A DNA stretch of 64,000 nt from a bacterium (GTDB taxonomy: Bacteria > Patescibacteriota > Saccharimonadia > UBA4664): assembly GCA_016699105.1 (NCBI GenBank), contig CP064960.1, positions 264,727-328,726 of the forward strand, in the 5' to 3' direction. This document shows positions 22,629-48,650 of the stretch, in pieces; within the stretch, counting starts at the first letter, position 1; each line of letters begins with the position of its first letter. Below the pieces are notes generated by a model. The model saw only the letters and a list, made by a program, of their open reading frames with translations, had not been told where the DNA came from and did not search any database. A program made the translations under genes and the position numbers.

Positions 22629-23386
22629 CTAATTGATTGGCAAATATTTGCCACCAAATTCGGTGACGCCCAGCGACTCGCGGAAGTACAGTTGGTAGCG
22701 CTCACTGGTATAGCCATTGGCATTGAGCCAGACGACAGCCGCGGCGCGACTGGCTCGAATATATCTAAGGTTTGAAGGATCAGTTGCAGTCGCTAATGGG
22801 TTGGTGAGATTGATGAACATGCTCGTGATAGCGAGCGGTATTTTGGTTTCCAGGGGTTTGGCGCCAGATATTCGATTTCGTAATTATCGGTTATGAGTGG
22901 CAATTTAGTGGTCAGACTAAAATTGGTTTTGAGCTCGTCTGGATTCGTAAATTGAGCATGAATGGCATCGGCGGCAATTTGGTTGGCGGCCGCAGTTGGC
23001 GTTAGTTCTTCGGTTTCAACGAGCTTGAGAAGCCAACGGTTGTTTTTGATATCTGATACGCATAGCAAATATCCATTTGTCGTTTGATGCTGTCCACAGA
23101 AATTGTAAGGCCCGAAACTATACTCTTGAAAACCAGATTGGTCATGCGGGTTGATGCGGAAAATGCTTTTGCCTTGGACAACTACTATCTGACCTTGATA
23201 AACCAAAAAATCCGACACTGATTTGATAGTAAATGCATTGTCTAAACCTTCGTCCTGGATCTTGAAGGTTTGAAGGCTATTGTTGAGCGCATTGAATGCA
23301 CATAGCATTTGATTGCCACAAAACAACAATTTGGAGATTTTGCCTGCTGTTGTGAAGTGTCGAGTAGTTTTACCAGGTGATGACAA
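22629..23386 (-). CDS. hypothetical protein (two ORFs, 22793..23386 and 22629..22820, probably one gene with a frameshift; may continue into 23515..24231)
   Basis: Adjacent same-strand ORFs overlap in different frames; no known motifs. Confidence 0.3.
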
Positions 23387-23514
23387 AACTATTTCGGACG
23401 TATTCTTACTATGGTCTTCTTCCGATTTTTCGGAGAAATAAGCTATGGCAACTGATTGCTCAAATGTGGTGATGGCTGCTGGCTTGGCAGCTTTGGTCTG
23501 TGCGGCTTCGAGCG

Positions 23515-24231
23515 TTATGGTCTGAGGGTCTGTACCAAAACCGGTGTAATACTGAACTTGGGAAAATCAGCATTGTGGACCAAGAAACCGGAAAAATATG
23601 GCGATAAGCGATACTCGATGCCAGATCGCAAACCTTTAATGGATTCAGTTTTGGTCGGTTCAATTTTGCCGGTAAATAGATGCAGTAGAGGCCCGCTGTC
23701 GCCAATGGCTTGGCTGAGGACAATTGTACCAATACTGGTATCTAGGCTATCCATAAAGCGACCACGAATGGCGGTGTATTCTTGATTAGTGTTGGCCATG
23801 GTAGCAGTGGCTGGTGTATGGAGTGTCATGTAATTTTGATTGCCGGTGCAGGTGCTAGTCAACGCAATGTTGGCGATGAGATAGGCACAGTTTCCGGGAT
23901 CGTCGGCAATGACATTGCGGGCAATTTGCGACTGGAGGCCAGCCGTGACGTTGGTTGTAGCTAGGAAAGGAGCGGTATCAGCAAGAAAGAAGCGCGATTT
24001 CATGCCCTGAGTGACGACGATGCGATATGAGCCCTTGGGCACAATTTTGCTATACGAGCTAGCAGACGTTTTAACGGTGGTAGCTTTGCCTCCAGCCTGG
24101 TTTTCGATGGTGACAGAATATTCGCCGGAAATATCCGGAATTGAGATACTTAAGCGGGAGTAATTCCAGAGACTGGCGATAGCTGCAACGAAAGTAATGG
24201 CCAGGGCTAAGATGAGAATTTTTGCTTTCAT
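23515..24231 (-). CDS. secreted hypothetical protein
   Basis: Signal peptide 'MKAKILILALAITFVAAIASL'; 238 aa; last gene of the minus-strand T4SS operon. Confidence 0.35.
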   Translation of the reverse strand: MKAKILILALAITFVAAIASLWNYSRLSISIPDISGEYSVTIENQAGGKATTVKTSASSYSKIVPKGSYRIVVTQGMKSRFFLADTAPFLATTNVTAGLQSQIARNVIADDPGNCAYLIANIALTSTCTGNQNYMTLHTPATATMANTNQEYTAIRGRFMDSLDTSIGTIVLSQAIGDSGPLLHLFTGKIEPTKTESIKGLRSGIEYRLSPYFSGFLVHNADFPKFSITPVLVQTLRP

Positions 24232-24255: not shown

Positions 24256-25539
24256 TTAGACGCCACCGCGGACATCCCAGTGCCAAGGTTCGCGGGGATT
24301 TTTGAGCTCGTAGAAGCCATATTTTTCGCCATTAGCGAGTAGCCACTTATACATACCAGCGCTGGTGTTAGAGCTAAAACTAAAGTCGATGGCTAACCCC
24401 GTTTGGTGATAGGAGTAGCCGGGTCGGCCGGCCATTGGTGGTCCGATTTTGGCCCAGAGATACTCCTGATGAGCCATGGAACGGAATGTAGATGAGGCGG
24501 CTATATCAAAGTTTCCCCAAGTGTTGGCACTACTGTCGCGATACGCGATGGCATCAGTGATCAGTTTGAAAAGCGCTCCAGAGACGCGCGAGTTGACCAC
24601 AGCGTGGCCATCTCCAAACTGATTACACTCTTGATTTGAACATGGGAAATTAGGAATGGCACAAAGACGAATCTTGATTAATTTACCATCATGGTAACCA
24701 TCATGAATACCGGCGTCGGTGGTGCCGTCAGCACAGGCTATGGCTGTGGAATCGTCGTAAATGTGTTCCCAGTCAATTTCGGCTGAAGCTTGACCAGAGG
24801 TAGAGGGGCAATTCGAGGCTGTAGTGCCGGTAGTTTCGCTGGGGATGGAAGCATCTGGCGTAACTGTGCTCGATGGCGGGAATAAATTCTTTTCTTTGAT
24901 ATATTTAATAACTGCTTGCTGGATGGAAATGTTTTTGCTGACGTAATTGGGGTCGGTGGCATAGCCGGCATTGAAAATGGCAGTTATATATTTGGCAGGG
25001 TCTCCGGGGAAATTGAGGGCCGCGGCGTAGCGGCTATTGGCATGGATGAACTGGCCGTAGCCCGCAAAGCCGGCTTCAGCTGTCGGGTACGCCCGAAACT
25101 TAGCCGATACGGTAACTGTTTGACCATTGATGACTTCTTCGGTATTGAGGGTGACGGTATCGCCGGTCCAGTTGCTACCGGCTTTAATGCCAAAGAAGTT
25201 GTTATATTGCCGAGTGAGGAGTGACCGACCATAGCCTGATTCGAGAGCTGCTTGGGCAATAATTGCTTCGTAAGGAATGCCGTATTGTTTGCCGATAGTA
25301 AAGGCTGCCTGAGCATATTTGTCGATAAACTCAGTGAGTGACAGTGTAGCTTCGGCTGCTTCAGTGTTATTTGAGGTTCCTCCAGATGTTGAGCAGGTTT
25401 CTGCTATATAGTTATCGTACCAATAGGTCTCGTTGGTGACTGAGACATCATCGCGATTCCAGATGGCTTGTGCGACGGGCGCTGTGGCTAGTTGGCTCGT
25501 AATAATGAGGGTGAATATGAGGCTGAGGCGTCTGAACAT
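24256..25539 (-). CDS. bifunctional peptidoglycan hydrolase: N-acetylglucosaminidase (FlgJ/LytD-type) plus M15 (VanY-like) D,D-/L,D-peptidase
   Basis: Signal peptide. 'AQAALESGYGRS...NNFFGIK' is the glucosaminidase signature. C-terminal 'GYSYHQTGLAIDF...EPWHWD' is M15 zinc peptidase. Confidence 0.8.
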   Translation of the reverse strand: MFRRLSLIFTLIITSQLATAPVAQAIWNRDDVSVTNETYWYDNYIAETCSTSGGTSNNTEAAEATLSLTEFIDKYAQAAFTIGKQYGIPYEAIIAQAALESGYGRSLLTRQYNNFFGIKAGSNWTGDTVTLNTEEVINGQTVTVSAKFRAYPTAEAGFAGYGQFIHANSRYAAALNFPGDPAKYITAIFNAGYATDPNYVSKNISIQQAVIKYIKEKNLFPPSSTVTPDASIPSETTGTTASNCPSTSGQASAEIDWEHIYDDSTAIACADGTTDAGIHDGYHDGKLIKIRLCAIPNFPCSNQECNQFGDGHAVVNSRVSGALFKLITDAIAYRDSSANTWGNFDIAASSTFRSMAHQEYLWAKIGPPMAGRPGYSYHQTGLAIDFSFSSNTSAGMYKWLLANGEKYGFYELKNPREPWHWDVRGGV

Positions 25540-25542
25540 GGC

Positions 25543-28125
25543 TTAACTTCCCCACTTGAGTGACTGATACATCTCAGACATGCCAGGCACATCGCCGACT
25601 GGGAAGATTTCTATCTTGTAACCACCTTCATCTTCGTTGAAATAGACATCGTAAATGAACTGACCAGGACCAGAGCCGGCGTTCTTTACCATAAATTCAT
25701 TCATTGTTTTGATGTATTCGGAGTTATCTTTGGTTTGACCTTGAGTGTTGTTGGCTCCCCACTCCGGGAAAGCTAACGGCTTGCCATGGCTGAGAGCAAA
25801 TTGACGCCAAGCCTCGATTCCGATTGGGGATCCATCACTGGTTTTGGCATCATGGGGTGTATCCCAATCGTAGGTATCGGGTCCGACTACATCAACGCAG
25901 GCGTCCCCAGGGTAGGCGGCAATAGGTGTGGCTGCACCACCGAGCGTGCCATCATTAAATGACCAAGTCATTTTCAGACCAGCTGCGTGTGCCATGGTGG
26001 CGACGTTACAAAACGTGGTTTTATAAGCAGCTTCTTCGCCTGGCATGACGGCCCATTGGGAGAAATCCATATTAGCTTCGTGAGCAAAGCGGACAAACGA
26101 CAGACCTTTACCGGCGCGATGAGTCTTGATATTGTTGATGGCTTCTTGCCAACGCGCATTGTAAGCACCACTAGCAGCGGCTGACCATGATTCGCCGTTT
26201 TGTTTGAAGATACCACCAATAGCAACATCGACGGCGCCGTTGAAATAATCATAAGCACTAATATTGCTGGCATCGGTGCAGTCAGGAATATCGCACCAGG
26301 TACCAACGATAGTAACAGGTGATTTGCGCCATGTCCCTAGATTGGGATTCAAATCATGCTTTCCATCCTCGAAGCTAGCGCCAGACATCCAGTTGGCGGT
26401 CAGTGGAGCGCTGGTCTGAACTTGTTCGACGAATCCGCACGGGCCTGGTTCGCCACCGGAGCCGATGCCGCCGTCGTCATTGGAATGGCCGCTGCCGGCG
26501 CACATACCTAGGGCCAGGCCGGTGTCAGTCAGGCACTTGTTAACTTTACTGGGGTCGCGGGCGTCGAAAGTGGTGGCGATCATTGATCGGCCGTCAGCTG
26601 AGGGCAATGCCATTTTACCTTCTGGGGTGACGCAATCGTAGATGTCGATGCGCTTATCGGGACCAGGGTAGTTGCCATTAGTATCCGGTGGACCGTTGAT
26701 GTCCTGAACGGCTACGTTTAGGTTGGTGTCGTTGAGTGTCTCTTTGTCGATAGCATAATGGACGACACCCACCGGCGACTTGAGGCTCGGTGGATCGACG
26801 GCTAAGCTGGCCGGGGTAAACGACTGTAACGTATTAGCAAAGTAGTTAACCGGATGTAGAAACAGCGTCGAAGCAAGGCTCGTAAATTTATTGGTGGCCG
26901 AAGCTGGTGTGGCGGGTAGAGCTGCCAGTAATCGCGATCCCATAGAGCCAGGTGTCTCCCAAGCTAGTAAACTGGCAAAGGGTCCCTGGGCGGCCAAATT
27001 GCGCTGGCGTTCAGCGGCAAACTGAGTGGTCTGCTCATAGCTGGCTTCGTACGATACCATGGCAGCACCGAGGTTATCGCGCAGGAAATTATTGGCAATT
27101 ATTTCCCAGCCGCCATCAATGGCATTGCCAAGAGGTGCCCCCCATTCCCCGTTATAGACGAGCCCAAATATTTTTTCGTAGATTACACCTAGCAATTCGG
27201 CTAAATGCTCGCCAACCCAATTGATGGCATCACTCAACCCCGTGATATCAGCAAAAAAGCTCAGAAGTGCGCCTATGCCCGTATTCCTGACGAAGACCAT
27301 AATAGCGTCGGTGATTTTATCGAGAGCTGTGCGGATAGTACATAGACTCGTGTGTTGGAAGCTCAGGCTGGTGAGGCGGCGGTACCACAGGGTCCACTGT
27401 TCGTACTCAGACATGACACGGCCTTCAGCGGGAATGCCTTGAAATTCTGGCGAACCAGCGTAGGTAACACCGCAAAAACCATAATTATTGGCTTTGGAGA
27501 TGAAATTTGAATCGGTACCGACCCGCTTGTCTTCGGGTATTGTGATACCGCCGTCGACATTGTTTGAATTAGTGCGCTGGTAAGCATTAGACTTTTCGAC
27601 GCCATCAATCATCTGCATCAAGACATTGATTTGGCTGGCCGTAAGCTCATCGGCTTTCATTTGGTCTTTGAGGCTAGCCCATGTTTGAGCGACTGTCACA
27701 TATTGGATCGAGCGTAAGGTCACGCCAAGTTTAAACCAGGTGCCATCCCAGATGAAATGGTCGACGTCGGCCGCTAGTGACACCCAGCCAATGATGGGTA
27801 AACCTTTGAGGGCGGCTTTGGCGGCAGTTTCGCCGATCACTTTTGCCAATATACTTTCGATGACTTTGCCAGATTTGGTTTTGAGGTCTGAATACTGTTC
27901 CCGTAGATTCTTTTTACTCTCGTCTTGGACTTCGCGTTGCTCGTCGTTTCTGGGTGCGGCTGCAACTGGCTTAAATGACGGATCACCATTGGGGTCGCGG
28001 CTTCGGACATATGGATCTTCGTCTTGGCAGTCATCTGGGCTTGAAACACAGCCTAGTGACTCGATGGTTTTATCGTTGGGGCCATCGAGCGCCAATGATC
28101 TCGCTTGAGTTTCGGTGTCATGCAT
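25543..28125 (-). CDS. very large secreted protein with a C-terminal GH26-like (mannanase-type) glycoside hydrolase domain; may be fused to the upstream ORFs by frameshifts
   Basis: The C-terminal ~300 aa contain 'VRFAHEANMDFSQW' (GH26 'RFgHEmN' acid/base motif), 'YPGDACVDVVGPDTYDW' (GH26 'yPGddyVDwvGvDvY') and 'LAFPEWGAN' (nucleophile region). 860 aa. Confidence 0.5.
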   Translation of the reverse strand: MHDTETQARSLALDGPNDKTIESLGCVSSPDDCQDEDPYVRSRDPNGDPSFKPVAAAPRNDEQREVQDESKKNLREQYSDLKTKSGKVIESILAKVIGETAAKAALKGLPIIGWVSLAADVDHFIWDGTWFKLGVTLRSIQYVTVAQTWASLKDQMKADELTASQINVLMQMIDGVEKSNAYQRTNSNNVDGGITIPEDKRVGTDSNFISKANNYGFCGVTYAGSPEFQGIPAEGRVMSEYEQWTLWYRRLTSLSFQHTSLCTIRTALDKITDAIMVFVRNTGIGALLSFFADITGLSDAINWVGEHLAELLGVIYEKIFGLVYNGEWGAPLGNAIDGGWEIIANNFLRDNLGAAMVSYEASYEQTTQFAAERQRNLAAQGPFASLLAWETPGSMGSRLLAALPATPASATNKFTSLASTLFLHPVNYFANTLQSFTPASLAVDPPSLKSPVGVVHYAIDKETLNDTNLNVAVQDINGPPDTNGNYPGPDKRIDIYDCVTPEGKMALPSADGRSMIATTFDARDPSKVNKCLTDTGLALGMCAGSGHSNDDGGIGSGGEPGPCGFVEQVQTSAPLTANWMSGASFEDGKHDLNPNLGTWRKSPVTIVGTWCDIPDCTDASNISAYDYFNGAVDVAIGGIFKQNGESWSAAASGAYNARWQEAINNIKTHRAGKGLSFVRFAHEANMDFSQWAVMPGEEAAYKTTFCNVATMAHAAGLKMTWSFNDGTLGGAATPIAAYPGDACVDVVGPDTYDWDTPHDAKTSDGSPIGIEAWRQFALSHGKPLAFPEWGANNTQGQTKDNSEYIKTMNEFMVKNAGSGPGQFIYDVYFNEDEGGYKIEIFPVGDVPGMSEMYQSLKWGS

Positions 28126-29260
28126 TTTGGTCTCTTTATCGACCTCGTCTTCTTTTTGTCGATGCCCCAGCGTTTGACATCGTAGGATTTGGATAGATAA
28201 TAGCGCACCGATCGTCGCTGCAAGATGCGAAAACCCTTATATCGATTTTCGGTAAATCTGGAGATTGTCGCTTCTAGACTGTTCCCAGCTGGGTTGGTTT
28301 TGAAGATTTCTTTTAGTTGACCAATATCATTGGCTTCAATGACTTCACCGCTGCCGCTCGTGAATCTGATGGAGCCGGCTGTACTACCACGCTCGATTTT
28401 AATATTGTGAGCTGTCATCAATTTCTGCTCAAATTGATCTTTGACCATATTACCCCAGAGCATCTTGATGATGTTGGAATTGGTATACATGGGATCGGAC
28501 TCGAGCGTGCCATTGAGGCGAGCAAATAAATATCGGTACACAATGATCTTGGTGCGGTGCTCGGCGTAAGCCTGCATTTTTCTTCTTGATATCCAATTAC
28601 ATTGTTCATGAAAGATTCAAGTTTGAGTGGCAAAAAGGCAATGGTAGAGATAACGAGTGCAATCACAATTCCGAGACCACCACCTCCGGCAATAAGCGAT
28701 TTGCGGTGTTTGCTGGCAAAGTCAAACGTGCGGCCAGCGATACGACGGCCGATAGGACCATTGGCAGCGGCGTTAGCATAGGCATTTCTAGCTCCGGCAT
28801 TATTGGCGAATGAGCCTGGTTTTCCAGGTTGGCTGGGCGTGGCGGTAGTGGTGCCACCTGGCGCCGAGCCACCGGATGCTGCAGCATTGGAATCGGTGGC
28901 GCCGGTGTTTTTGGAACTTGGGCTCGTGGAGTTGGCGTTGTTGATCATCTGATTGCCACGATCATCACCATGGACGGCGTCAAGCGGCTCATTTCTGGCT
29001 GAGGGTATTTCATTGGATCGAGACATTTTGGCTGGCTCATTATCGGCAGCGCCATCGTTTGGGGCTGAAGGTTGGACAATGGTTGCCGGCTTCGGAGCTT
29101 GGTTGCCGTCTATGAGCTGAAATTGTGACCGGCGAGCCTTGGCCTCGGAGTTAACGGCACGGTCGGCGGCCTGCTCGCGGACAGCTTGTAGAAATCGACT
29201 GTCTTTCGGCGGCTCATTATTCGGACTTGATCTGAGGCTGCCAGCAGAACGTAATGCCAT
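28053..29260 (-). CDS. membrane-anchored protein (two overlapping ORFs joined by a probable frameshift in a T/A homopolymer near 28578-28590), possibly the N-terminal part of the 860-aa protein
   Basis: ORF 28418..29260 has a Gly/Asn/Ala-rich low-complexity region and the TM segment 'LIAGGGGLGIVIALVISTIAFL'. ORF 28053..28577 continues in another frame. Both frames stay open across the 28053-28125 overlap with the next gene. Confidence 0.35.
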
Positions 29261-29266
29261 CGCGGA

Positions 29267-31155
29267 TTAAGCTCCTTGCTCCGACGGGGCAACTGCTTCA
29301 TCTGGTGCGGGAGTGGCATTAGCTTTGTCAGCAGGGTTGGTACTGATCAAACTGGCTTCAGTCTCGGAAGCTAGAACTCGGATAATGACGTGGTTGAGTC
29401 CAGCAAAGAACAGGCCTTCACCCACTGGGAATTCGGTAAGCCGAGCTTTTTCCTCATTGGTAAGTTTAAACGTTTCACCAATGATATCGACGGCGGACGG
29501 TGCTTGCTTGAGGAGAAGTTGCAAGGAAGAGTTGGCCACTACCGCCCGCCCCATTTTGTTGCTCAGGAAATCCTCAACGTCTTGCGAGATTGTTGTCAGA
29601 CCCAGGAAATATTTACGAGCCCGTTTGGCTAGACTAAACATGAAGGCTGCTGAATCGTCGTATTTCATGAGCTGCCAAGCTTCGTCAACTATTAAGATGC
29701 GCTTGCGGCGATCAGATTTGACTTTATTCCAGATATAATTGAGTACGATATACATGCCAATGGGGCGAAGTTCGTCTTCTAGGTCGCGGATGTTAAAGAC
29801 GAGGAAGGGGTTGTCAATCTCGACGTTTGATTGTTCAGAGAAGATTCCCGAGAATGTACCGGTAGTAAATTTGCGAAGTCGCATGGCCAGATCTGGACCG
29901 TTGCCAGTCATTGACGCTAATGTGTTGTATAGGTCGTTCATGGTTGGCGGGGTGGCATTGTGTGTGAGTGGATCGCGGGTGATACCGGCACGGGCGTAGG
30001 TGTTGATGATAGCAAGGTCGAGATCAGCGTCTTCACTCGGTGTGAGATTGGTCATGCTGGTGGCACCAGTGGAGTTGGAGACAGTGGCACCACCAATCAT
30101 CAGGCGCAAGAGCCCATGGAGCGTGATGATATTAGCCTGGAGGGCATTGTCGGCTTCGTCTTGATCAAAAACGCGTGGTAAATCAAAAGGGTTGATGCGC
30201 GTCTGACTAGCCAGCGATAAGCGTAAGTACGTTCCACCGACAGCTTCACAAAGGGTTTTATACTCGTTTTCTGGGTCGATCACAATGATCTCGATGCCCA
30301 TCATGAGCGAGCGTAAAGCCTCGAGCTTAATTGAGAACGATTTACCAGCTCCGGATTTGGCGAAGACAACCATATTGGCGTTTTCGAGAGAGAAGCGGTC
30401 GAATAAGACGAGACCATTGTTGTGGCGGTTCAGGCCGTAGAGGATGCCTTCGTTGCGACTAAGTTCGGCAGAAGTGAACGGGAAGCTGGTCGACAAGGCA
30501 CCGGTATCCATGTTGCGGGAGATTTGGAGCTGGTCATTCGCGATGGGGCTGGTAGAATTGAAGCCCTGCTCCATTTGCATGGTAGCCGCTTTGGTGTACA
30601 CCAACGATTGGCCGAAGATACCCTCGATCTTGCGATTGAGGTCGGTCATGGCATCGAGCGAGTCGGCGTACATAGTTAGATACATACCAAATCGAAAGAA
30701 GCGCTCTTCTCCGACTTGGAGCTTGTCACGCAACTCCTCAGCATCCTGGAGTGCAGCCTCGAGACCAGGGTCACGTACTTTGCCCTTCTCTTCATTAATG
30801 GCATAAGACGCTTCCATTTGGGTGACTTTTTACGCAGGTTATCGAGGACTACCCGCGACTCAACGGGGTAAATGTAGAGCGAAATGTCGATAATCTCGTC
30901 GAGGTTGATGATGGGCGATAACCAACCGGTGAATACTTGGCGAGGGTAACCGTAGACGTATAGGGTTTTGCAATAGCGTTTGCCGATGCGGACGTAGTTG
31001 GCATCAATTTCGAGAGACGACGGCGCGATGAGATCGCGCATGGTGATGACGCCCTGACGATAGATGAGCTCAGCTTCGCGTTGTTCTAGAGCCTGCTGGT
31101 AGGCAGCCAGAGCCTGGGGGTCGACTTTGGGTTTGGATGGGCCGAATAATCCCAT
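29267..31155 (-). CDS. virB4: VirB4/TrbE/CagE-family T4SS ATPase (main body), interrupted by one frameshift near 30815-30830
   Basis: ORF 30676..31155 gives 'IDANYVRIGKRYCKTLYVYGYPRQVFTGWLSPIINL' (the CagE_TrbE_VirB region). ORF 29267..30817 gives Walker A 'VVFAKSGAGKSF', Walker B 'ILIVDEAWQL' and 'NMDTGALSTSFPFTSAEL'. Confidence 0.8.
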
Positions 31156-31748
31156 TAGAACGGACCTCCTTCGATAGTACTATGGGGCGCGCGGCCATCG
31201 CCTTTGAGGACGACTGGTCCGGTCAGTTGTTCGGCATCAATCAACTTTTGATTGTGGGCGACGTCGGGGTTGTACCAGGTATAGTACAGATCGACGAGTT
31301 CTTGCGTGCCAAGAGCTAAGGCTCTAATACCAATTTGCCCCAAACCGCTGGTGACCAACGCCATACGCTCAGACAACTCTTGCTTGTAGGCTTTGAAATC
31401 CTCTTCGGTGACCGTGATGTCTGCTGGTGTACTGTAGGCATTTTTGAGGTTTTTCACGAGCGCTGGCGTTTTGCCTGAAACAACTCCAGGGAAATATGGC
31501 ACCACAATGTAGATTTGCTTGTCCATAATGTTGACCTCGTCGACCAACGATTTGACGTTGGCGATGTAGTCGTCCATGAGGGCACCTAATAGTTCGTTAG
31601 CTTGCTCGGTGCGCTTGGTCTGCATACGCTCGATGTAGGCCGAAAGGTCAATACGTTCGGAACGGATAACTATTTGAATCGGGAAATGAAGTGAATTGAG
31701 GAAGCTCTGATACGCCATCTCAATGCCTTGTTGTTCCTGGCTACTCAT
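31155..31748 (-). CDS. VirB4 N-terminal domain encoded as a separate ORF (stop/start overlap TAATG with the next piece)
   Basis: 'FPIQIVIRSERIDLSAYIERMQ...IYIVVPYFPG' matches the VirB4 N-terminal 'lqvhvlRrpvdl...ylt' region that normally precedes the 'IEIDxDYxRIG' segment. Confidence 0.5.
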   Translation of the reverse strand: MSSQEQQGIEMAYQSFLNSLHFPIQIVIRSERIDLSAYIERMQTKRTEQANELLGALMDDYIANVKSLVDEVNIMDKQIYIVVPYFPGVVSGKTPALVKNLKNAYSTPADITVTEEDFKAYKQELSERMALVTSGLGQIGIRALALGTQELVDLYYTWYNPDVAHNQKLIDAEQLTGPVVLKGDGRAPHSTIEGGPF

Positions 31749-31877
31749 GAGCTCGAAGTTGATGGCGCTACCGAGGATGACTCCCGAATGGAACCATCGC
31801 GCAAAATTACGACACCGTCCTTAATCTCTGAGATTAAAAGACTTTGCTGTGTACTTTTTCCGGCTTTGCTGGCGGTA

Positions 31878-32702
31878 TTAGCTGGCACTCGTTGCTGTCT
31901 CCACAGTTGCGCCTGCTGTTGGACTCAAGCGGGTAGCTTGGGCGGCAACAGAGGCAATGCTCATTCCCTCACTCTGGGTGGCTAATCGTAGTATATCGTC
32001 TTGGCCTAAAGCTGTCACGCCGCTTATGCTTTTGGCGGGTGTTTCAAAATGCGATGGCTTGGGCAGGTCGGTTCCAGGTACCATATTAGCGACAGCCGAT
32101 TGTCGAACCTGGCTAGCTGATTGTTGGAGCAATACTGATAGATTTTGAGCTAATGGGCTATTCTTGAGGTCGAGCATGTCGGTATGAGGGGCTGTTATGT
32201 TTGACGGTGTGGCATCTGGTTGGACGATACGAGCGGAACTTGGGGTGCTCGGCATGATGAGATGAGTATTGGTGTCGGAGGATTGAGGAATATTCCAGCC
32301 GCGGGAGTCTATAAGCGTGGCTAGTTTTTCTAGTTCACTAATAACCAACTGGGGATTGCGTTGGGTGATTTCAGCCTTAAGTGCGGTTGGTGTTATATGA
32401 AATGTTTCGAGATTTTCTTCTTTGATCCACAGACGTTTGCGGGGTGCGGCAAAGAAACCAACGACTGCAACTAGCAGATGCTCGAAGTCTTGGCCATCGC
32501 GGCGGAAGAACGCTAGCAACAAGAACAAGATTGCCGGCGGTACACCAATGACAATGAACCCGGCAATCAACTGGCGGAAAATGGCAAAAGTAATAATGAT
32601 CCAGCCTAAACCGATCATCATATAGATGAATTGCCGAAACGTCAGCGGGCCTAGGATATGGTCTTCGGCTTCAACATTTTGGGGAACAGTATATTGACCC
32701 AT
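31878..32702 (-). CDS. PrgI/VirB3-like T4SS membrane protein
   Basis: N-terminus 'MGQYTVPQNVEAEDHILGPLTFRQFIYMMIGLGWIIITFAIF' matches the PrgI-family pattern (M.Y..VP...edkI.g.LT.RQ followed by two TM helices). Located directly upstream of virB4. Confidence 0.5.
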   Translation of the reverse strand: MGQYTVPQNVEAEDHILGPLTFRQFIYMMIGLGWIIITFAIFRQLIAGFIVIGVPPAILFLLLAFFRRDGQDFEHLLVAVVGFFAAPRKRLWIKEENLETFHITPTALKAEITQRNPQLVISELEKLATLIDSRGWNIPQSSDTNTHLIMPSTPSSARIVQPDATPSNITAPHTDMLDLKNSPLAQNLSVLLQQSASQVRQSAVANMVPGTDLPKPSHFETPAKSISGVTALGQDDILRLATQSEGMSIASVAAQATRLSPTAGATVETATSAS

Positions 32703-32807
32703 AGACTACTCTGACTGGGGCATAAATATCCCCTCTCATCCTCACAGTTGATATATAAAGCTTACGCTAAATTAGGTTGCGAGGAAGATAGGACGGTGTG
32801 ATGTCTA

Positions 32808-35800
32808 CTAAAGATTATTGTTAGTCTTGTATCCAAGAACAATTTTTTCGAGTGCTTTTCGATGTTGTTCTTCTGCGCCTGGGGTACTTCCAAATTGTGC
32901 CTTGAATCTGTCAAGTACAGCTTGTCGTGGAGTGCCCATACTTTTGCCATCGGCATTAAACAAGAACCTATACATGGCATCGTAGTCCGCAGGAGTCTGC
33001 TTTGGATTTATATTACCTTCAGTCATTATCTGCTTGATGTTGGATACCGATTCGCCGATCATCTTACTTCTCTTGGAGTCAAGATCTGCGAAATCAGGAT
33101 GTGTTGATGGTACTGGAACAGGCGCCAAAGCGAATTCAAACAAATGCTCTTTAGTCTTGTAATCCATGGCAGCAACTTCACCGGCTTTGGCATTTTCAAA
33201 GGCGGCTGCTGGACCCTTGACGATGTCTGGTCGCTTATCAGCATTCACCGTTGAGACGACCCGCTGGAAAAAGCTGTTGGCTGAAAAGTCAGTATCACCA
33301 GCGGCACGGGCGTCGGCTTCCAGATTGGCAGCGATGGTTCGATCGACGCGTACGTTTCCATCGGTACCGAATGTTTCTTTTAGTAATTCACGAACTTTTT
33401 CAGAACCACTGGTTGTCAGTGCTAGTGCTGAAGTGAGAGCCGTAAACTTTGCCCGGTCGCCCGTTTTGAACGCATCAACCGCTTCAGTGTATATTTTATC
33501 TTTATTTCCACTATTGGGTTTTAGGGTGCTTATCGGAACCTCCATACCTGTACTGGGATCCAGGAACATACTGCGTCCAGCTTCAGCCACGAGGCTTTCA
33601 AACTGTCTTTCGCTCGCTGCTTTTCGGGCTGTATCAACTTTTTCGCCATAAGTTTTATCGGTTTGGCTTAATCGAACTTGTTGATCAGCTTCTTTGGCGG
33701 CAAGCGATGCCTCTGAGTCTCGTCGTGCCATTTCGAGCTGAGCGGTAGCTGCTGCTTTTGTCGGTGATTTATATGCCCGTTCTTGAGCGATTAGTGTTCC
33801 TTGAGCAGCAGCTTCAGATCTTTGTCCTGTGTCAATTCCGGCGAGTGTTGCCGAGCCAATGACATCAGCTTGGGCACTATCGGCCAGGCTTGTTAGAATC
33901 TCGGCTTGAGCTTTTTCACGATTAGCTGATGGGTTTCCAGTTGTCATCCCGCGGAGAGCGGCTTCATTATTCAAGTAGTCTTCCATTGCTTGCTCGTCGC
34001 TCACTCCGGGGGCGAATGCTCTAGCTTGAGCAAGTAAGGCAGCTCCGGCAGTAGCTCCGATAGCGGCTGTTACTGACTGGTTTTTGCCAACTGCTTGTCC
34101 GATAGAACCGGCTTGACCCTGCGCTGCCGTCAAATAGGCGCCTTCTGCGCTTGCGTCATGATAGATACGACTTGCATCGGCATCAGACACAGATCCAGGC
34201 AGGTTGGCAGCAATATTTAATTCTGCCTGTCGCTTGATGGCGTCGTCTGATATACCTGCCAGGCTGTGTTCTTCGGCTTTTTCCCGAGTCATGCCGGTAT
34301 TGCTAGCAAGCCGTTGTTGTATATCCTTTTCACGTATTCTTTCAGATTCTTTGGCAATCCTGATTTCCCTTTACCTTTTTCGAAACCGTCAACTTCACCA
34401 CGAGCTTTGGCGATTTGTAATCGAGTGTTGAAGCCAGCTTCGCCCGATCCTTGATAGCAATTTTTTGCTGATATCAGCACGTACATTAGCTCGATCAGCA
34501 GCCGATGCTGTGCTTGGGTCTATGCCGTTTTTAATTAAGACCCTATCTTCTGCTTCGGTTACTTCTTGCAGTCGTTCACCTACGGCCATGTCTTTGGTGA
34601 GTTGATCATTGGTAGCTTTGAAGGTGGCATCGTCAAGTTGCTCGGCGGTTGACGGCCGAGTAGGACTTTGTCCATTGTATCCACGGACAGATCTGACGGC
34701 ACCAGTACGCTGGGCACTGGTTGCAACGGCCGAATCTTCACCGCGCACACCGGCAGCGATTAAGCGATTTTGAGACTTGGTGTCCGCGAAGTGTCGCCAT
34801 TGTTAGCTGCCAAGATATCGTCATTTTCAATCTGATTTCCTTTCTTTTGGCTCATGACTTGACTGCCAATGCTCTCTTGGGCTTCTCGTCTGGCCGCTTG
34901 TTCAACCTCACGATCGGACATGTGGCCTTCAGTTGTACCTGGATGGCTACTCTGTTTCGACGTGCCTGACGCGCCGCCGATAGATTGCCGCGTTGTTGTA
35001 AGGCAGCTGCATCCATGATGGTAGCAGCTGATTCGTCGCGGTGAGTATTGTAGTCGATTTGACCTTGACGAAGTTTACCGCCTTCATCGAGCACGCCTTC
35101 TCGAGCCGAGACGCGAGCATTGGTTTGACGGTACTGCTGAATCCGATTTTTAGCATTATTGCGTTGATCATCGGTGGCTGTCAGGGGATTAATGCCCATG
35201 TGCAATAACTCAGCATCTTCGAGATGCTTCTGGCCGTTAATCCGACCCTCTGTCTTGCCTTTATCGTCACTGAGACTATCGATCTGGCTTTTGCGGGCAT
35301 CTTCGATAAGATCGCCGGTACTAGGCGCGTTGCCATTATATTTCGATTCAGCAGTTCCTGTCCCTGAGCCATAGAGACTGGCAGCGCTTTTGCGACTAGA
35401 TTCCAAGCCTGCTTGATAGCTGCCTTTGGCAAAATTTACCATTTTTCGGGTAGATCTGCGCCTTCGATGGCATCGACGGTTTCCATTAGTCCAGCTCGAT
35501 CAGATCGGCCTTTCGTAATGCCCTGTAGTGCTGCGGTAGTTTCTGCGTCGACGCGTTGCTTGTTGGTTTCACCGGTACGAGTAGCGCCAGCTAGTTTGGA
35601 AGCATTGATAGCACCTTGGGTTTTAAAATGCAGCGCTCGCAGCTTCTTCAAATTTAAGTTTTTCAGGTCATTACCCTTACCGCCGAGAAAGCCGCCATGG
35701 CCAGCTGATTTCATTGCGACACGCTGCCTGAAATTCTTTGATAATTTTCCGCCAAGGCTAGTTGGCTGTTCTCGATCGATTTCTTTGGCGCGTTGGACAG

Positions 35801-36032
35801 CATTGTGCTGTCGATTAGCTCTGCGACTTTCATAAGCTCCAGCCAGTTGGTTGCCGAGCCTTGCCGTACCTTGTTTGTTGAGGAAGTTTTGGGCTTTGTT
35901 AACTCCCTTTTGTGCAGCAGACATAAATGTTCCAGCGCCCTGTGCTGTTCCTGGTACTAAGAAAAGCGGAATATAGAGACCAGCTAGGGCTACAGCTACT
36001 TGAATTGGTTCGCTTAATAGATCTGAGAGCAT
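32808..36032 (-). CDS. large (~1070 aa) N-terminally membrane-anchored, low-complexity/coiled-coil T4SS-associated protein split into four ORFs by about three frame changes
   Basis: Contiguous same-strand ORFs 35436..36032, 34852..35442, 34395..34748 and 32808..34292 abut or overlap. N-terminal TM 'VAVALAGLYIPLFLVPG'. Ala/Gln/Lys/Arg/Thr-rich repeats. No catalytic motifs. Confidence 0.4.
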
Positions 36033-37189
36033 CAGAATCCTCCCGCTACAGCCGAAAATAACCTACCGGCTTCGAAAAGTAATACGATCAAAGGGTACAT
36101 CAGAATGAGTCGGATGAGATTATCGAGCCACTTGCTGAAATACTTGCTAGTGTTGGGCAAAATGTATGTCAATGCCGCGAGCGGACTAATGACGATAAGC
36201 ACAAGAATTAGCACATTACGAAGAATAAGCGTTGCAAATGTTGCTACTAAGCCGATGAGTATGCCAAGTAATATTGGCCACAGCATGCCCGTGTAAGCAG
36301 TAAAGCCAGTGACGCCGAGCAATACTCCACCGCCTGCTGTGTAGACAAGTTCCGATACCGGCGAAGTAAAATCTATCTTTGGATCAGGGATGAGCGGTGC
36401 AGTTATCGCGACGATACCTTGGCCGAGTATATTGCCTAGATCCACCATGAATACGCATATGTACCATGATAGCGGCATGAGGATTGCAGTTGCGATGAGG
36501 CGTGGCAGGGTTTTCTTGATAGTGTAATTGTCATAGCCAATAGCTGTGCCGAAGATGATAACCAGGAACAAGAGTATCAGAACTACACTGGCAACATTTC
36601 GCATGCCGGACCAGATATCATACAGTGGCTTGATGTCAGCGGCATCTTTATCAAGCGGAGCTTGTTGTAGGAGCGGAATAATTACAGTATTACGAATCCA
36701 ATCAATAACACCTAACGACCATTCAATGGTGCCACAGATAAGCCAAGTGAAGCCTTTGCCAGCATTACACTTGACCGGGTCTTCGTTATCGCCGTCTTCG
36801 CCCTCGTCAACGGCGTTGGCTAATCGTCCCGAGACCTCTTGGCTTCCTAGTGTCAAAGAACCAACTTGCTCGCCATCAACAACATATTGACCGCTGGTAC
36901 CATTGGCACTCACGTTTTCAATCGAAATAGATATATTTGCTTCGGGGTCAGTACCGCCAAGGTACTCTTTCTTGGGCTCTGAATTGTCATTTGGATTGGG
37001 AGTAAAGTCTATGGACAGTGTGGGGTCAGTCGCGAATCCGGTACAGCGGATGGTAGTGGTGTTTACCCAAACACAACTCGTTGGTGGGACGTCAACGGCT
37101 TGAGCCGTGCCTGAAAGCACAGTTAAACCAATCATGGGAGCAAATACTGCCCACGCCATCAGCGCAATGAGAGTCCACCTCGACTTCAT
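36032..37189 (-). CDS. VirB6/TrbL-like polytopic T4SS channel protein
   Basis: Start assigned to 'MKSRWTLIALMAWAVFAPMIGLTVLSGTAQA' (signal peptide). The annotated upstream Met at 37447 is less plausible. Extracellular domain, then at least 5 TM helices at the C-terminus. Confidence 0.55.
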   Translation of the reverse strand: MKSRWTLIALMAWAVFAPMIGLTVLSGTAQAVDVPPTSCVWVNTTTIRCTGFATDPTLSIDFTPNPNDNSEPKKEYLGGTDPEANISISIENVSANGTSGQYVVDGEQVGSLTLGSQEVSGRLANAVDEGEDGDNEDPVKCNAGKGFTWLICGTIEWSLGVIDWIRNTVIIPLLQQAPLDKDAADIKPLYDIWSGMRNVASVVLILLFLVIIFGTAIGYDNYTIKKTLPRLIATAILMPLSWYICVFMVDLGNILGQGIVAITAPLIPDPKIDFTSPVSELVYTAGGGVLLGVTGFTAYTGMLWPILLGILIGLVATFATLILRNVLILVLIVISPLAALTYILPNTSKYFSKWLDNLIRLILMYPLIVLLFEAGRLFSAVAGGF

Positions 37190-37220
37190 GTTCAAAATTG
37201 TAACATGAGCGTTTTGACTT

Positions 37221-37598
37221 TTGCTATTGGTGCTTCCTATAATGTGTCTAATGGAAAGACCAGCTGATGCTGCCGCCGGATCGTGCGGTACAACTACCGG
37301 AGGCCTACCTGGATTATGGGATGGGCTCAATTGTGATGGCGCGGGCAACATTGAGTTGGCTGCTGTGTCCGATGTATTTGTGATTGTGGGAAATGTACTC
37401 CGGATTTTGATTGCACTATCAGGTGCGATTGCCGTGATTATGATCATCGTGGCGGCAATTTACTATGTGACGTCTATGGGTGATCCAGGCAGAGTGAAGA
37501 AAGCTAAGGATATGCTGACAAATCTAGTAATTGGCTTAGTGCTTTTGATAGGCGCCTATGCGGTGGTTGATTTTGTGACGAAAGGAATCGCCGGATGA
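37221..37598 (+). CDS. VirB2/TrbC-like pilin paralog 1
   Basis: Two hydrophobic helices separated by 'SMGDPGRVKKAKDM'; 125 aa; first of four tandem paralogs. Confidence 0.5.
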   Translation: MLLVLPIMCLMERPADAAAGSCGTTTGGLPGLWDGLNCDGAGNIELAAVSDVFVIVGNVLRILIALSGAIAVIMIIVAAIYYVTSMGDPGRVKKAKDMLTNLVIGLVLLIGAYAVVDFVTKGIAG

Positions 37599-37912
37599 AT
37601 TTTGATTGGCTTGTAGCCACGTCCGTATCGGCGGAAGAAATTGGGTTGCCCAATGATGTAGGCACCATCGGTGATGGTTTGAGTAATGTCATATTGCTCT
37701 TGATGGGGCTCATTGGTGGCTTGGCACTCATTGCTCTCATATATGGGGGCGTTCAGTTTACCCTATCGGCCGGTGATCCGGGCCAGACGAAACAAGCTAA
37801 AAATACAATTCTATACGCTGTCGTAGGAATAGTACTGGCAGCTTCGGCTTATATGCTGGTGTGGTTTATAACGCATAATATTGGTGACGGGTTCGATTTC
37901 TTTTCGGGCTAA
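37595..37912 (+). CDS. VirB2/TrbC-like pilin paralog 2
   Basis: 'LIGGLALIALIYGGVQFTLSAGDPGQTKQAKNTILYAVVGIVLAASAYML'. Confidence 0.5.
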   Translation: MNFDWLVATSVSAEEIGLPNDVGTIGDGLSNVILLLMGLIGGLALIALIYGGVQFTLSAGDPGQTKQAKNTILYAVVGIVLAASAYMLVWFITHNIGDGFDFFSG

Positions 37913-37936
37913 CACCGCAATTAAGGAGTAAGGTAC

Positions 37937-38266
37937 ATGGAACAAAGTTTTCAACTCATGTTAGCGAGCGCTTCAGACGTCATTGGTCAGAGTGCGCAAA
38001 ACGCGTGTGGCACATCGTGTAATACCAATCTGTCGGTGACGGCTATTTTGGCGAATATTGCCAACGTTTTGGTGTTTATTGTCGGTTCGGTGTCGGTGAT
38101 TATGATTATCATTGGTGGTTTGCGCTATGTATTGTCGCAGGGTGATACTGGCGCGGTCAGTAAGGCCAAAAATACGATATTGTACTCGGTCGTTGGGGTT
38201 GTGGTAGCTGTAATCGCGTATGCCATTATTCAATTCGTGACAGACATACTCTCAAAAACGGGTTAG
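37937..38266 (+). CDS. VirB2/TrbC-like pilin paralog 3
   Basis: 'VFIVGSVSVIMIIIGGLRYVLSQGDTGAVSKAKNTILYSVVGVVVAVIAYAI'. Confidence 0.55.
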   Translation: MEQSFQLMLASASDVIGQSAQNACGTSCNTNLSVTAILANIANVLVFIVGSVSVIMIIIGGLRYVLSQGDTGAVSKAKNTILYSVVGVVVAVIAYAIIQFVTDILSKTG

Positions 38267-38344
38267 TTTGCGCTTACGCTTAGGCTTATGCTACGCTAAT
38301 TGCAACTTGGAATATCATAAAGGTAGTAAGGAGACAACCTGTCG

Positions 38345-38788
38345 ATGAGTATTATGTCATTAACCCAGAAAACAGCGGTGTCGCTGCAGGCACTAGCCCT
38401 AGTCTTCGGGTTTGGGTTCGGTACAGTAGCGGCCGCGGTAGCGTTGAGCGCTCCGGCACAAGCAGCCTGTTCCGATGGCTTTGATTCGGCGGACCCACTC
38501 AACTCGGGTGCTAGTTGTGCCAAGGCTAACGGTACCAGCAACAATTTGTTCGCTGAAGGCGGCGTGTTCCAAACCGTTGCCAACACCTTGGTGTTCTTGG
38601 TAGGTGCCGTTTCGGTCATCTTCCTGATCATCGGTGGTTTGCGCTATGTCATCTCCCAAGGTGAAAAGAGCAACGTTGAGCAAGCTAAAAACACCATCCT
38701 CTACGCAGTTATTGGTATTGTGGTGGCCGTCATATCCTTTGCTTTGGTGCAGTTCGTGATCAGCGCCTTGGCCAAGAGTAGCGCCTAA
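38345..38788 (+). CDS. VirB2/TrbC-like pilin paralog 4
   Basis: Signal-like N-terminus, Cys-containing mature N-terminus, 'VFLVGAVSVIFLIIGGLRYVISQGEKSNVEQAKNTILYAVIGIVVAVISFAL'. Confidence 0.55.
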   Translation: MSIMSLTQKTAVSLQALALVFGFGFGTVAAAVALSAPAQAACSDGFDSADPLNSGASCAKANGTSNNLFAEGGVFQTVANTLVFLVGAVSVIFLIIGGLRYVISQGEKSNVEQAKNTILYAVIGIVVAVISFALVQFVISALAKSSA

Positions 38789-38815: not shown

Positions 38816-38837
38816 CCCCGGGAAACCGGGGCTTTTT
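38816..38837. terminator. bidirectional rho-independent terminator
   Basis: 'aaaaaa-CCCCGG-gaaa-CCGGGG-cttttt' between the convergent pilin gene (+) and hsp20 (-). Confidence 0.6.
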
Positions 38838-38851: not shown

Positions 38852-39289
38852 CTAGATGACCGGCTTGACTTTGATTTTCTTGACCTTGTCTTGGGCGACC
38901 TTGGGGATGGTAACTGTCAGTACGCCGTCCTTGAGGGAAGCGGCCGCCTTTTCGGCAATCGTCGAAGTCGGTAAGATGACTGAGCGGCTAAAAGCACCCC
39001 AGTAGCATTCTTGGACGTAGTAGTGCTCGCGGTCGACTTCGCGGTTTTCGACACGCTCGCCCCGGATGGTGACGACGTCTTCGGCGACCTCGATATCAAT
39101 TTTGTCGGGAGTCACACCGGCGATAGGGGCTTTGATAACAACGTTTTCTTTGGTCTGATAAACGTCGACCGCGAGCTGACCCTCGGCTTCGGCCATCCAA
39201 TCGTCTTCACCCTCCATCGGGGCGTCGAGGAAGTCGTCTTGAAGGACGTTGTCTTGTGGTTCGGGGGCGGATTTCTTGCCTGGCATCAC
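38852..39289 (-). CDS. hsp20: Hsp20/alpha-crystallin family small heat-shock protein
   Basis: 'DVYQTKENVVIKAPIAGVTPDKIDIEV...LKDGVLTVTIPK' alpha-crystallin domain; 145 aa. Confidence 0.85.
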   Translation of the reverse strand: MMPGKKSAPEPQDNVLQDDFLDAPMEGEDDWMAEAEGQLAVDVYQTKENVVIKAPIAGVTPDKIDIEVAEDVVTIRGERVENREVDREHYYVQECYWGAFSRSVILPTSTIAEKAAASLKDGVLTVTIPKVAQDKVKKIKVKPVI

Positions 39290-40066: not shown

Positions 40067-40088
40067 TGCTATGATGTCAACGTTTTCT

Positions 40089-40178
40089 GGAGAGGTACCC
40101 AAGAGGCTGAAGGGCGGGTTTGCTAAACCTGTAGGGGGCGTAAGCTCTCGCGAGAGTTCGAATCTCTCCTCTCCGCCA
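40089..40178 (+). tRNA. tRNA-Ser (anticodon GCT)
   Basis: Manual fold: acceptor GGAGAGG/CCTCTCC, anticodon stem CGGGT/ACCTG with loop TTGCTAA, long variable arm, T-loop TTCGAAT, 3' CCA encoded. Confidence 0.85.
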
Positions 40179-47767: not shown

Positions 47768-47855
47768 TGGCGGAGGGTGGGATTCGAACCCACGGAACCC
47801 TTGCGGGCTCTCCTGTTTTCAAGACAGGTGCACTCGGCCACTATGCGACCCCTCC
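47768..47855 (-). tRNA. tRNA-Ser (anticodon TGA)
   Basis: The reverse complement folds as acceptor GGAGGGG, anticodon stem CCTGT/ACAGG with loop CTTGAAA, long variable arm, T-loop TTCGAAT, CCA. Confidence 0.85.
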
Positions 47856-47901
47856 AGGTCTAATATGCAGGCTCGCTCCATAGTGTACACTCCTCGGGTA
47901 G

Positions 47902-48528: not shown

Positions 48529-48573
48529 GCTTGGTCTTTGAAGCTGAATGTGGTACAGTATTCAGGTTCATAA

Positions 48574-48650
48574 GCGCCTGTAGCTCAGTGGATTAGAGCA
48601 TCAGCTTGCGGTGCTGGGGGTCGCAGGTTCGAATCCTGCCAGGCGCACCA
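48574..48650 (+). tRNA. tRNA-Arg (anticodon read as GCG)
   Basis: Cloverleaf: acceptor GCGCCTG/CAGGCGC, D-arm GCTC..GAGC, anticodon stem TCAGC/GCTGG with loop TTGCGGT, T-arm GCAGG-TTCGAAT-CCTGC, discriminator A, CCA. Position 34 is G where bacterial tRNA-Arg usually has A, so the fold should be verified. Confidence 0.65.

Follow-up and report, generated by a model that had tools for sequence, protein, structure and literature searches.

A type IV secretion cluster beside the origin genes of an uncultivated Saccharibacterium, probably a host-contact conduit rather than a conjugation apparatus

What does a type IV secretion system (T4SS) of Gram-positive type do when no relaxase or coupling protein accompanies it? 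The question is raised by a 64-kb stretch of contig CP064960.1 (the window, meaning the whole of the DNA analyzed), in which a minus-strand operon with VirB6-, PrgI- and VirB4-like genes lies back to back with four pilin genes. An earlier note on this DNA, made from the sequence alone, had described a Gram-positive-type T4SS that is probably not conjugative and may have another role. This description held: the components validate, no mobility genes were found in the 64 kb, there are no att-like repeats, and the locus occupies a conserved position on the side of the origin. In our assessment the cluster is very probably a vertically inherited chromosomal T4SS of the Patescibacteria type, belonging to an uncultivated Saccharibacterium and orthologous, gene for gene, to SEML1_0004-0019 of Southlakia epibionticum; it would be a host-contact conduit, not a conjugation apparatus, and the breaks in its genes would be base undercalls.

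Components of the cluster and comparison with known systems

Two sets of sequences served for comparison. Contigs of the same species, matched by the exact DnaA and PrgI proteins of the window, came from short-read assemblies made independently (ENA MEGAHIT/SPAdes, Logan) and have 95.6-98.6% DNA identity to it. Neighborhood counts were made in 80 Saccharibacteria species loci collected from VirB4 relatives, within 10 kb of virB4; in these loci we found relatives of TrsD (77), PrgI (67), VirB6 (59, by tblastn) and the pilins (~38). The cluster combines an MPF_FATA-related VirB4 with an adjacent TrsD, PrgI and VirB6, a divergent array of PF18895 pilins and an origin-proximal locus that lacks relaxase and coupling protein, the combination by which a Patescibacteria-type T4SS is recognized. 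The marks of a conjugative MPF_FATA system, a relaxase with VirD4/TcpA and an integrase with att repeats, were not found in the 64 kb.

VirB4 matched Pfam P-loop_TraG (E 6e-26) and AAA_10, as well as the solved VirB4 domain of PDB 4ag5 (E 2e-49). With 358.7 bits it exceeded the cut-off (325) of NCBIfam NF045971, the CD1110 or CTn2-type family; against NF045975, built on Mbov_0397 of the Mycoplasma integrative and conjugative element (ICE), it scored E 1.5e-73 and 248 bits, below the cut-off of 590. The trsD-like gene overlaps the start of virB4. Its product matched NCBIfam TrsD below threshold (E 1e-8), and the same-species orthologue carries a precomputed PF26593 call. The VirB4 that the earlier note had called split is indeed encoded as two genes, TrsD (244 amino acids, aa) and VirB4 (629 aa), in all relatives; the further breaks, at ~31783 (visible as a tblastn frame switch) and ~30830, are artifacts. 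The PrgI/VirB3-like assignment was confirmed by PF12666 (see table).

All four divergently transcribed genes predicted to encode VirB2-like pilins exceeded the gathering score of PF18895 T4SS_pilin (E 3e-8 to 2.5e-12), and each product has a leader and a hairpin of two transmembrane (TM) helices, as in VirB2/TrbC. Hence the pilin-like and PrgI-like calls both passed profile searches. Pairwise identity among the pilins is 29-35%. Pilin 2 also scored 41.5 bits against NCBIfam NF045849, the Mbov_0395 pilin-like family of Mycoplasma ICEs (cut-off 40). The N terminus of pilin 1 is uncertain due to indels at 37228-37257, as mapping of the 129-aa same-species gene indicated. A promoter scan placed a promoter-like site at 37214-37243, at pilin 1, and a terminator scan found a terminator-like hairpin at 38816-38831 after pilin 4, the last gene of the divergent operon.

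The VirB6-like call was borne out as well, though less firmly than the others: Pfam TrbL was matched below threshold (E 0.004-0.008), the same-species orthologue has a precomputed PF19590 TrbL_3 match, and the protein is polytopic with ~5-6 TM segments. The low-complexity protein previously given as ~1070 aa is present; it is 1076 aa long and intact in same-species contigs, and it is broken in the window by eight single-base indels (seven missing bases and one extra) within 34367-35659. Its gene starts in an ATGA overlap with virB6. No Pfam or NCBIfam match was found for it, and no tblastn relatives in the 80 loci. In related species VirB6 and a ~1000-aa low-complexity protein form a single gene, of 1463 aa (contig L091, 2063-6454) or 2221 aa (contig L005, 1477-8142). 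Because of this fusion, the 1076-aa protein is probably a detached extension of VirB6.

At the other end of the operon, the predicted glucosaminidase/M15 peptidoglycan hydrolase was recovered with both domains above curated thresholds (PF01832, E 5.8e-33; PF02557, E 1e-9; NCBIfam FlgJ-type muramidase, E 2e-36). By analogy, we regard this 427-aa protein as the functional counterpart of VirB1. The secreted 238-aa protein thought to follow it (23515-24231) proved to be only the N-terminal fragment of a 534-aa protein, which has an N-terminal hydrophobic segment and no family match in Pfam or NCBIfam. In same-species contigs a 100-aa gene lies between the 534-aa gene and recF.

The set as a whole has a counterpart in S. 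epibionticum ML1, a member of the same class, Saccharimonadia. In the annotation published for this organism (Wang et al. 2023, Cell; PMC10633639), dnaA, dnaN and recF are followed by a pair of genes for small exported proteins, then by genes for a hydrolase of lysozyme type and for a protein of 1113 aa that ends in a DD-peptidase. Next come VirB4, TrsD-like and PrgI genes and those for a protein of 998 aa, an NTF2-like protein and VirB6. Six pilins of PF18895 follow, encoded on the opposite strand, and after them Hsp20, ComFC (K02242) and tRNA-Ser. By this table the window is colinear with SEML1_0003-0022, including the flanking Hsp20, ComFC and tRNA-Ser (SEML1_0020-0022). Both clusters come after dnaA-dnaN-recF, neither locus holds a relaxase or type IV coupling protein (T4CP), and both run from exported protein(s) and a peptidoglycan hydrolase through a membrane protein of ~1100-1240 aa, VirB4, TrsD-like, PrgI, a hydrophilic protein of ~1000 aa and VirB6 to divergent PF18895 pilins. 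The two clusters also differ. There are four pilins here and six in S. epibionticum; VirB6 is short here (375 aa), with its hydrophilic extension as the separate 1076-aa gene; the post-virB4 protein ends in a GH26 domain instead of a DD-peptidase, while a DD-peptidase (VanY) is encoded in the next gene; and one 534-aa gene replaces the two small exported proteins. The earlier view that no known set corresponds to the repertoire is therefore outdated, as gene by gene it agrees with that of Saccharibacteria. Likewise, synteny comparison showed that the neighborhood is conserved across the 80 Saccharibacteria loci.

According to Wang et al. (2023; PMC10633639), the S. epibionticum subunits most resemble those of Gram-positive conjugative T4SSs, but the pilin series is essential and neither a coupling protein nor a relaxase could be recognized; the authors suggested protein export or another role. 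In their transposon sequencing (Tn-seq) of co-cultures, nearly all T4SS genes of strain ML1 were essential, and ComFC (SEML1_0021) was non-essential. A survey of 2,474 Patescibacteria virB4 genes (Quinonero-Coronel et al. 2025; PMC12102498) placed VirB4 in a clade that is monophyletic and has MPF_FATA as its relation, and reported TrsD, PrgI and VirB6 as well as 441 VirB2 arrays of 2-11 genes with a mean identity of 25%; dnaA/dnaN proximity was noted, and T4CP homologues were mostly far from virB4. Earlier, McLean et al. (2020) had reported a VirB4/VirB6/VirB2 region with 4-6 small secreted proteins in an array and "GntX" across Saccharibacteria, and had drawn a comparison of TM7x with Ptl. 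In a 2025 review the Patescibacteria systems figure as the single exception among monoderms in having VirB2 pilins, and a function of the pilus as a conduit toward the host is offered as speculation. Since Wang et al. and Quinonero-Coronel et al. reached the non-conjugative interpretation for the orthologous cluster and for Patescibacteria, this interpretation, which our analysis supports as correct, was already in print.

Gram-positive MPF_FATA systems (pCF10 prgH-prgL, CTn2/CD1110, pGO1 trs, ICEBs1, pCW3) share with the window the order PrgI, VirB4 and a large membrane-anchored wall hydrolase in PrgK position, a VirB6-like PrgH/TcpH, TrsD as in pGO1, a VirB4 above the CD1110-family cut-off and the lack of an outer-membrane core. 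In contrast to them, the window locus has no relaxase, T4CP, oriT, integrase or PrgB-type adhesin, is chromosomal, origin-proximal and vertically conserved, and encodes VirB2-like pilins, whereas MPF_FATA systems are described as pilus-less. The Mycoplasma ICEs resemble it in the pilin and VirB4 matches given above; both lineages are wall-poor or monoderm and have a small VirB2-like protein beside VirB4. However, VirB4 stays well below the NF045975 cut-off, and the Mycoplasma ICEs are mobile and have a DDE recombinase of their own, unlike the window locus. That pilin 2 passes the NF045849 cut-off is a hint that Patescibacteria are not alone in having VirB2-like proteins among wall-less or monoderm T4SSs; together with the match of VirB4 (same-species contig L085, 11549-13438) to the Mycoplasma-ICE model, it suggests that these systems shared a pilin-bearing ancestor. 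Bordetella Ptl and Brucella VirB, too, are driven by VirB4, have VirB2-type pilins and lack a coupling protein in the locus, but these exporters of effectors or toxins are of the diderm MPF_T type and possess VirB7/9/10/11; the window yielded no toxin genes comparable to ptx.

Features of the T4SS cluster and its flanks in the window (positions as read on the forward strand)
Feature	Position	Strand	Details
dnaA	15973-17346	+	Pfam; same-species gene calls
dnaN	17622-18746	+	Pfam; same-species gene calls
561-aa protein and sortase	18801-21236	+	frameshifted; Pfam; same-species gene calls
recF	21268-22329	+	Pfam; same-species gene calls
Secreted or anchored protein	22629..24231	-	534 aa, intact in same-species contigs L084-L089; frameshifts ~22853, 23563
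Secreted peptidoglycan hydrolase, N-acetylglucosaminidase/FlgJ-like and VanY/M15 D,D-carboxypeptidase	24256..25539	-	427 aa
1239-aa bitopic membrane protein, PrgK position	25543..29260	-	intact in same-species contigs; frameshifts 28153, 28577
VirB4 ATPase	29267..31155	-	629 aa; Walker A GAGKS, Walker B DEAW; frameshift ~30830 in A5/T5 run
TrsD/TraC-like	31155..31888	-	244 aa; like VirB4 N-terminal domain; frameshift ~31783
PrgI/VirB3-like	31878..32702	-	274 aa, intact; PF12666 E 2.2e-12
Ala/Gly/Ser/Glu/Arg-rich protein	32808..36032	-	1076 aa; one N-terminal TM; intact in same-species contigs L085-L090
VirB6-like polytopic membrane protein	36032..37159	-	375 aa; alternative start 37189 gives 385 aa
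VirB2-like pilin paralogue 1	37205..37598	+	125-129 aa; PF18895 E 3.1e-8; ORF 37221-37598
VirB2-like pilin paralogue 2	37595..37912	+	105 aa; PF18895 E 2.5e-12
VirB2-like pilin paralogue 3	37937..38266	+	109 aa; PF18895 E 1.9e-9; two-TM hairpin
VirB2-like pilin paralogue 4	38345..38788	+	147 aa; PF18895 E 5.8e-9; signal peptide and two TM helices
Hsp20	38852-39289	-	far flank of cluster
ComFC/GntX	39398-40066	+	far flank of cluster
tRNA-Ser(GCT)	40088-40177	+	far flank of cluster

Gene breaks, mobility and alternative readings

Several cluster genes are split in the window. In all same-species contigs the cluster is intact, with pilins of 147, 109, 105 and 129 aa, TrbL_3 (375 aa), the 1076-aa protein, PrgI (274 aa), the TraC-like protein (244 aa), VirB4 (629 aa), the 1239-aa protein, Glucosaminidase+VanY (427 aa) and the 534-aa protein. 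Proteins of the relatives align to the split genes with frame switches located in A5, T5 or G runs. Compared with all same-species contigs, the window is one base short at identical sites, among them 22853, 23563, 28153, 28577, ~30830 and ~31783; further sites are 13561, 20858, 22456 and 40112-40168, and the undercall rate is ~1 per kb wherever the contigs can be compared. The fraction of shortened runs depended on homopolymer length: 1/482 3-mers, 2/134 4-mers, 2/31 5-mers, 4/11 6-mers and 1/1 7-mers. Outside the cluster, errors affect a His-phosphatase (13698-14063), the sortase (20431-21236) and valyl-tRNA synthetase (ValRS, ~57.3-60 kb), and tRNA-Ser lacks three bases within the gene.

Because the same-species short-read contigs are intact, shortening rises with homopolymer length and genes outside the cluster are affected too, we take the breaks beyond the TrsD/VirB4 boundary to be single-base homopolymer undercalls of an error-prone assembly, not pseudogenes. 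The gene models of the earlier note, which had read through the breaks, were thus essentially right. An alternative genetic code was considered for the fragmented open reading frames (ORFs) and rejected, since the breaks are frame switches at homopolymers and not in-frame stops. The quality of the assembly makes other "split gene" or "pseudogene" findings from the window suspect.

A Pfam search of the 64 kb, which covered plausible ORFs and most remaining frames of at least 85 aa, with the exception of some antisense to annotated genes, gave no relaxase, VirD4/TcpA, integrase or recombinase; this agrees with the earlier statement that coupling ATPase, relaxase and integrase are missing. Precomputed Pfam calls of the same-species contigs likewise included no relaxase or coupling ATPase. 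The sole trace of a mobile element in the 64 kb is an IS630-like helix-turn-helix (HTH) fragment. Between 21.0 and 41.5 kb, around the cluster and tRNA-Ser, no att-like direct repeats were detected apart from those due to pilin paralogy; att repeats beside the cluster, which would have pointed to an ordinary ICE, are thus lacking. Since the order recF ... Hsp20-ComFC-tRNA-Ser is the same in a different genus and origin genes are nearby in about half of the 80 loci (dnaA/dnaN/recF in 41-46), the locus appears to be a vertically inherited chromosomal cluster and not an island. Its GC content is continuous with the surroundings, with no compositional break.

Two other accounts of the locus can be set against these observations. 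That it is a decaying, pseudogenised T4SS relic whose frameshifts are real mutations is, in our view, very improbable, even though at least 14 frame-disrupting indels fall in cluster genes while the housekeeping genes dnaA, dnaN, recF and pgi and the gene for a 2446-aa RHS protein, all of them long ORFs, are unbroken. Every one of these indels is a window-specific single base relative to 5-6 mutually agreeing independent short-read contigs, the probability of shortening climbs with run length, the sortase, His-phosphatase, ValRS and tRNA-Ser carry the same type of error, and in a relative that has been cultured the orthologous genes are essential. We give still less credence to an ordinary ICE, of which this would be the transfer module, with relaxase, coupling protein and integrase just outside the 64 kb. 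The conserved flanks and nearby origin genes, the unbroken composition, the lack of mobility genes and the absence of direct repeats of the tRNA end around the locus all speak against it, and the survey of virB4 genes found only 109 relaxases, 15 of them near virB4 (Quinonero-Coronel et al. 2025; PMC12102498). This has to be balanced against a VirB4 that is assigned to a conjugative family (above the CD1110 cut-off, with the Mycoplasma-ICE match), a neighboring tRNA-Ser, a typical ICE target, and the presence of relaxases in a few Patescibacteria genomes.

A role in DNA uptake, which the earlier note had allowed for on account of ComFC, fared little better. A competence machine comparable to H. 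pylori ComB or archaeal Ced and working with ComFC could explain why ComFC lies beside the cluster here, in S. epibionticum, in TM7x (as "GntX") and in 19 of the 80 loci, and it would suit organisms unable to make nucleotides; comF, recG and radA also co-localize with the T4SS in the ABY1 class (Quinonero-Coronel et al. 2025; PMC12102498), and VirB4 gives weak matches to CedB and CedD. These matches (CedB, 50 bits against a cut-off of 700; CedD, 21 against 600) reflect the shared P-loop, however, and the cluster contains no DNA-binding or DNA-processing component. In S. epibionticum ComFC is non-essential while the T4SS is essential; published work shows further that deletion of comEC abolishes competence and not viability, and that competence depends on type IV pili. 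We therefore consider DNA uptake improbable. Since relaxase, coupling protein, integrase and att sites are all missing from the locus, a host-contact conduit, not a conjugation apparatus, is the most likely identity of the system.

The GH26-bearing protein downstream of virB4

The large membrane-anchored protein was predicted to end in a GH26-like domain, and homologues, profile, fold and catalytic residues all bear this out. The 1239-aa protein has a disordered N terminus, a TM segment at ~196-214, an all-alpha middle domain (~380-930) and the C-terminal GH26 domain (~940-1239; 25546-26472). Pfam alone gave a sub-threshold GH26 match (E 0.019). A phmmer search of the PDB gave E 6e-4, with HE-x-N and E-W-G catalytic motifs aligned to those of the CtLic26 lichenase; homologues of the domain at E 8e-45 and 3e-31 carry PF02156, and a family profile matched GH26 crystal structures at E 1e-20. 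When an AF2 model of the domain (pLDDT 82, pTM 0.83) was submitted to Foldseek, the top matches were all GH26 (CtLic26, E 4e-13; TM-scores 0.67-0.75). GH26 enzymes have a (beta/alpha)8 GH-A fold with two catalytic glutamates, the acid/base in the HE-x-N motif and the nucleophile close to where strand 7 ends. The corresponding residues here, E1062 in HEAN and E1167 in PEWG, are each retained by at least 90% of the aligned family. By homology and predicted fold, membership of the C-terminal domain in GH26 is confirmed, with both predicted catalytic glutamates retained. GH26 is not known as a family of peptidoglycan hydrolases.

Proteins that resemble the 1239-aa protein as a whole are rare, with 3 clusters among 5.8 billion proteins. 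Its middle domain, in contrast, has 156 representative relatives of 800-1500 aa in an exhaustive HMMER search, and these lie directly downstream of virB4 in 44 of the 80 loci; the 1239-aa protein is therefore a conserved component of the cluster. Of the features of PrgK/VirB1-type wall hydrolases, it has the post-virB4 position, which in pCF10 is that of PrgK, and the single TM segment. The all-alpha model of the middle domain gave no significant match to PrgK or to any solved PDB fold. The C-terminal module varies across the family (relatives P0052-P0173): GH26 here, Exo_endo_phos with Peptidase_M23 or CHAP in longer members and a DD-peptidase in S. epibionticum.

The GH26, 1076-aa and 534-aa parts had no tblastn relatives in the 80 loci, even where VirB4 is 85-87% identical. 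For this reason the accessory surface of the system seems to evolve fast, which fits interaction with a host. It is weak speculation that the GH26 domain was taken from an actinobacterial host: its best independent match lies on an actinobacterial-looking contig and another comes from Frankia, but other close relatives stand in planctomycete-like and exopolysaccharide (EPS)-cluster contexts, which counts against such an origin. Going further, the post-virB4 protein might be a modular "host-envelope drill", in which a conserved anchor and an all-alpha stalk bear lineage-specific, swappable hydrolase heads matched to the host envelope and so determine host range; we hold this to be rather unlikely. 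Mannan, glucan or arabinogalactan-type polymers are examples of what such a head would meet in the envelope of Actinobacteria. If the proposal were true, the head would be the host-range determinant for T4SS-mediated attachment or a feeding site. Two points here are mildly new: the 1239-aa protein is a member of a conserved family whose hydrolase modules at the C terminus are interchangeable, and in this lineage the module is a GH26 glycosidase.

Proposed role and genomic surroundings

On homology and the phenotype of the orthologue, the following mechanism can be proposed. VirB4 and its TrsD partner, held at the membrane by PrgI/VirB3, would power a translocon with the VirB6-like protein and the hydrophilic extension of 1076 aa at its core. 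The four VirB2-like pilins would be exported by Sec and polymerized into a pilus or tube reaching the actinobacterial host, and the membrane-anchored 1239-aa GH26 protein, together with the secreted glucosaminidase/M15 peptidase, would breach the wall, either the cell's own or that of the host. The machine could then serve as a host-contact conduit that exports proteins or imports host material for epibiotic growth. By analogy with the orthologue, it would be required for growth on the actinobacterial host and would not be a DNA-transfer device.

Several points weigh against this interpretation. The function assigned derives wholly from orthology and a single Tn-seq study, which was made in another genus. 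Colinearity with S. epibionticum was judged from the published annotation table and not by sequence alignment. Within the cluster, the VirB6 identification is weaker, as it relies on a sub-threshold Pfam match and a precomputed annotation of the orthologue; no NTF2/VirB8-like gene was recognized here, whereas S. epibionticum has one (non-essential); and three proteins, the 1076-aa protein, the 534-aa protein and the 1239-aa protein in its middle domain, have no assignable fold or family. Finally, a distant VirD4 homologue, of the kind found in many Patescibacteria (Quinonero-Coronel et al. 2025; PMC12102498), may lie outside the 64-kb window.

The presence of dnaA, dnaN and recF and the distribution of VirB4 relatives identify the window as the origin region of a Saccharibacteria (TM7; Patescibacteria, the candidate phyla radiation or CPR) chromosome. 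Saccharibacteria are tiny and live on other bacteria; a chromosomal T4SS cluster of the present kind occurs in nearly all of them, often close to the replication origin. With the C-terminal ORF of VirB4 as query, more than 565 tblastn-confirmed relatives were obtained in GTDB species genomes, nearly all from Candidatus Saccharibacteria/Saccharimonadia, the closest at 85-87% identity. The cluster lies ~300 bp from recF, with dnaA, dnaN and recF 0.3-6 kb away. Between dnaN and recF the window carries an insertion of a 561-aa protein without Pfam match and a sortase (254-268 aa in intact contigs), whereas recF directly follows dnaN in S. epibionticum.

Other features of the window lie farther from the cluster. 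Three more tRNA genes, Ser-TGA (minus), Arg-GCG (plus) and Ser-CGA (plus), are found at 47769-48898, ~8 kb past the T4SS flank. An rRNA operon was considered as the cause of the ORF-poor 53-64 kb and rejected: Rfam found four tRNAs only, and the region holds the frameshifted ValRS and fragments of membrane proteins. At its end an N-terminal HTH_23/HTH_32 fragment (62796-63188, minus), typical of IS630-family transposases, adjoins a protein with two LuxR/GerE HTH domains (63209-64000, plus) that is truncated by the window end. The 2446-aa RHS/YD-repeat protein lies within 4184-13496 (minus), its same-species version having 2259 aa with PA14 and TEN_YD-shell; downstream of it come an RHS-repeat fragment (4614-5723) and a DUF2599 ORF (4184-4570), so that 4184-13496 looks like a polymorphic-toxin locus. 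DNA alignment to the same-species contigs ends at 13528, and the RHS/YD-repeat gene is therefore strain-variable. A PIN-domain protein, a nuclease of toxin-antitoxin type, is encoded near the window start (1622-2020, minus) beside ORFs without family matches.

The Patescibacteria T4SS is the first T4SS reported to be essential for its carrier bacterium, and among the monoderm-type systems described to date no other has an essential VirB2-like pilin array; its importance has been recognized in publications of 2020, 2023 and 2025. What the window contributes is a further orthologous example, found in an uncultivated species, and not a new secretion system, an ICE or a pseudogene relic. The lead to retain is the exchangeable hydrolase module, here GH26, on the conserved protein that follows virB4.

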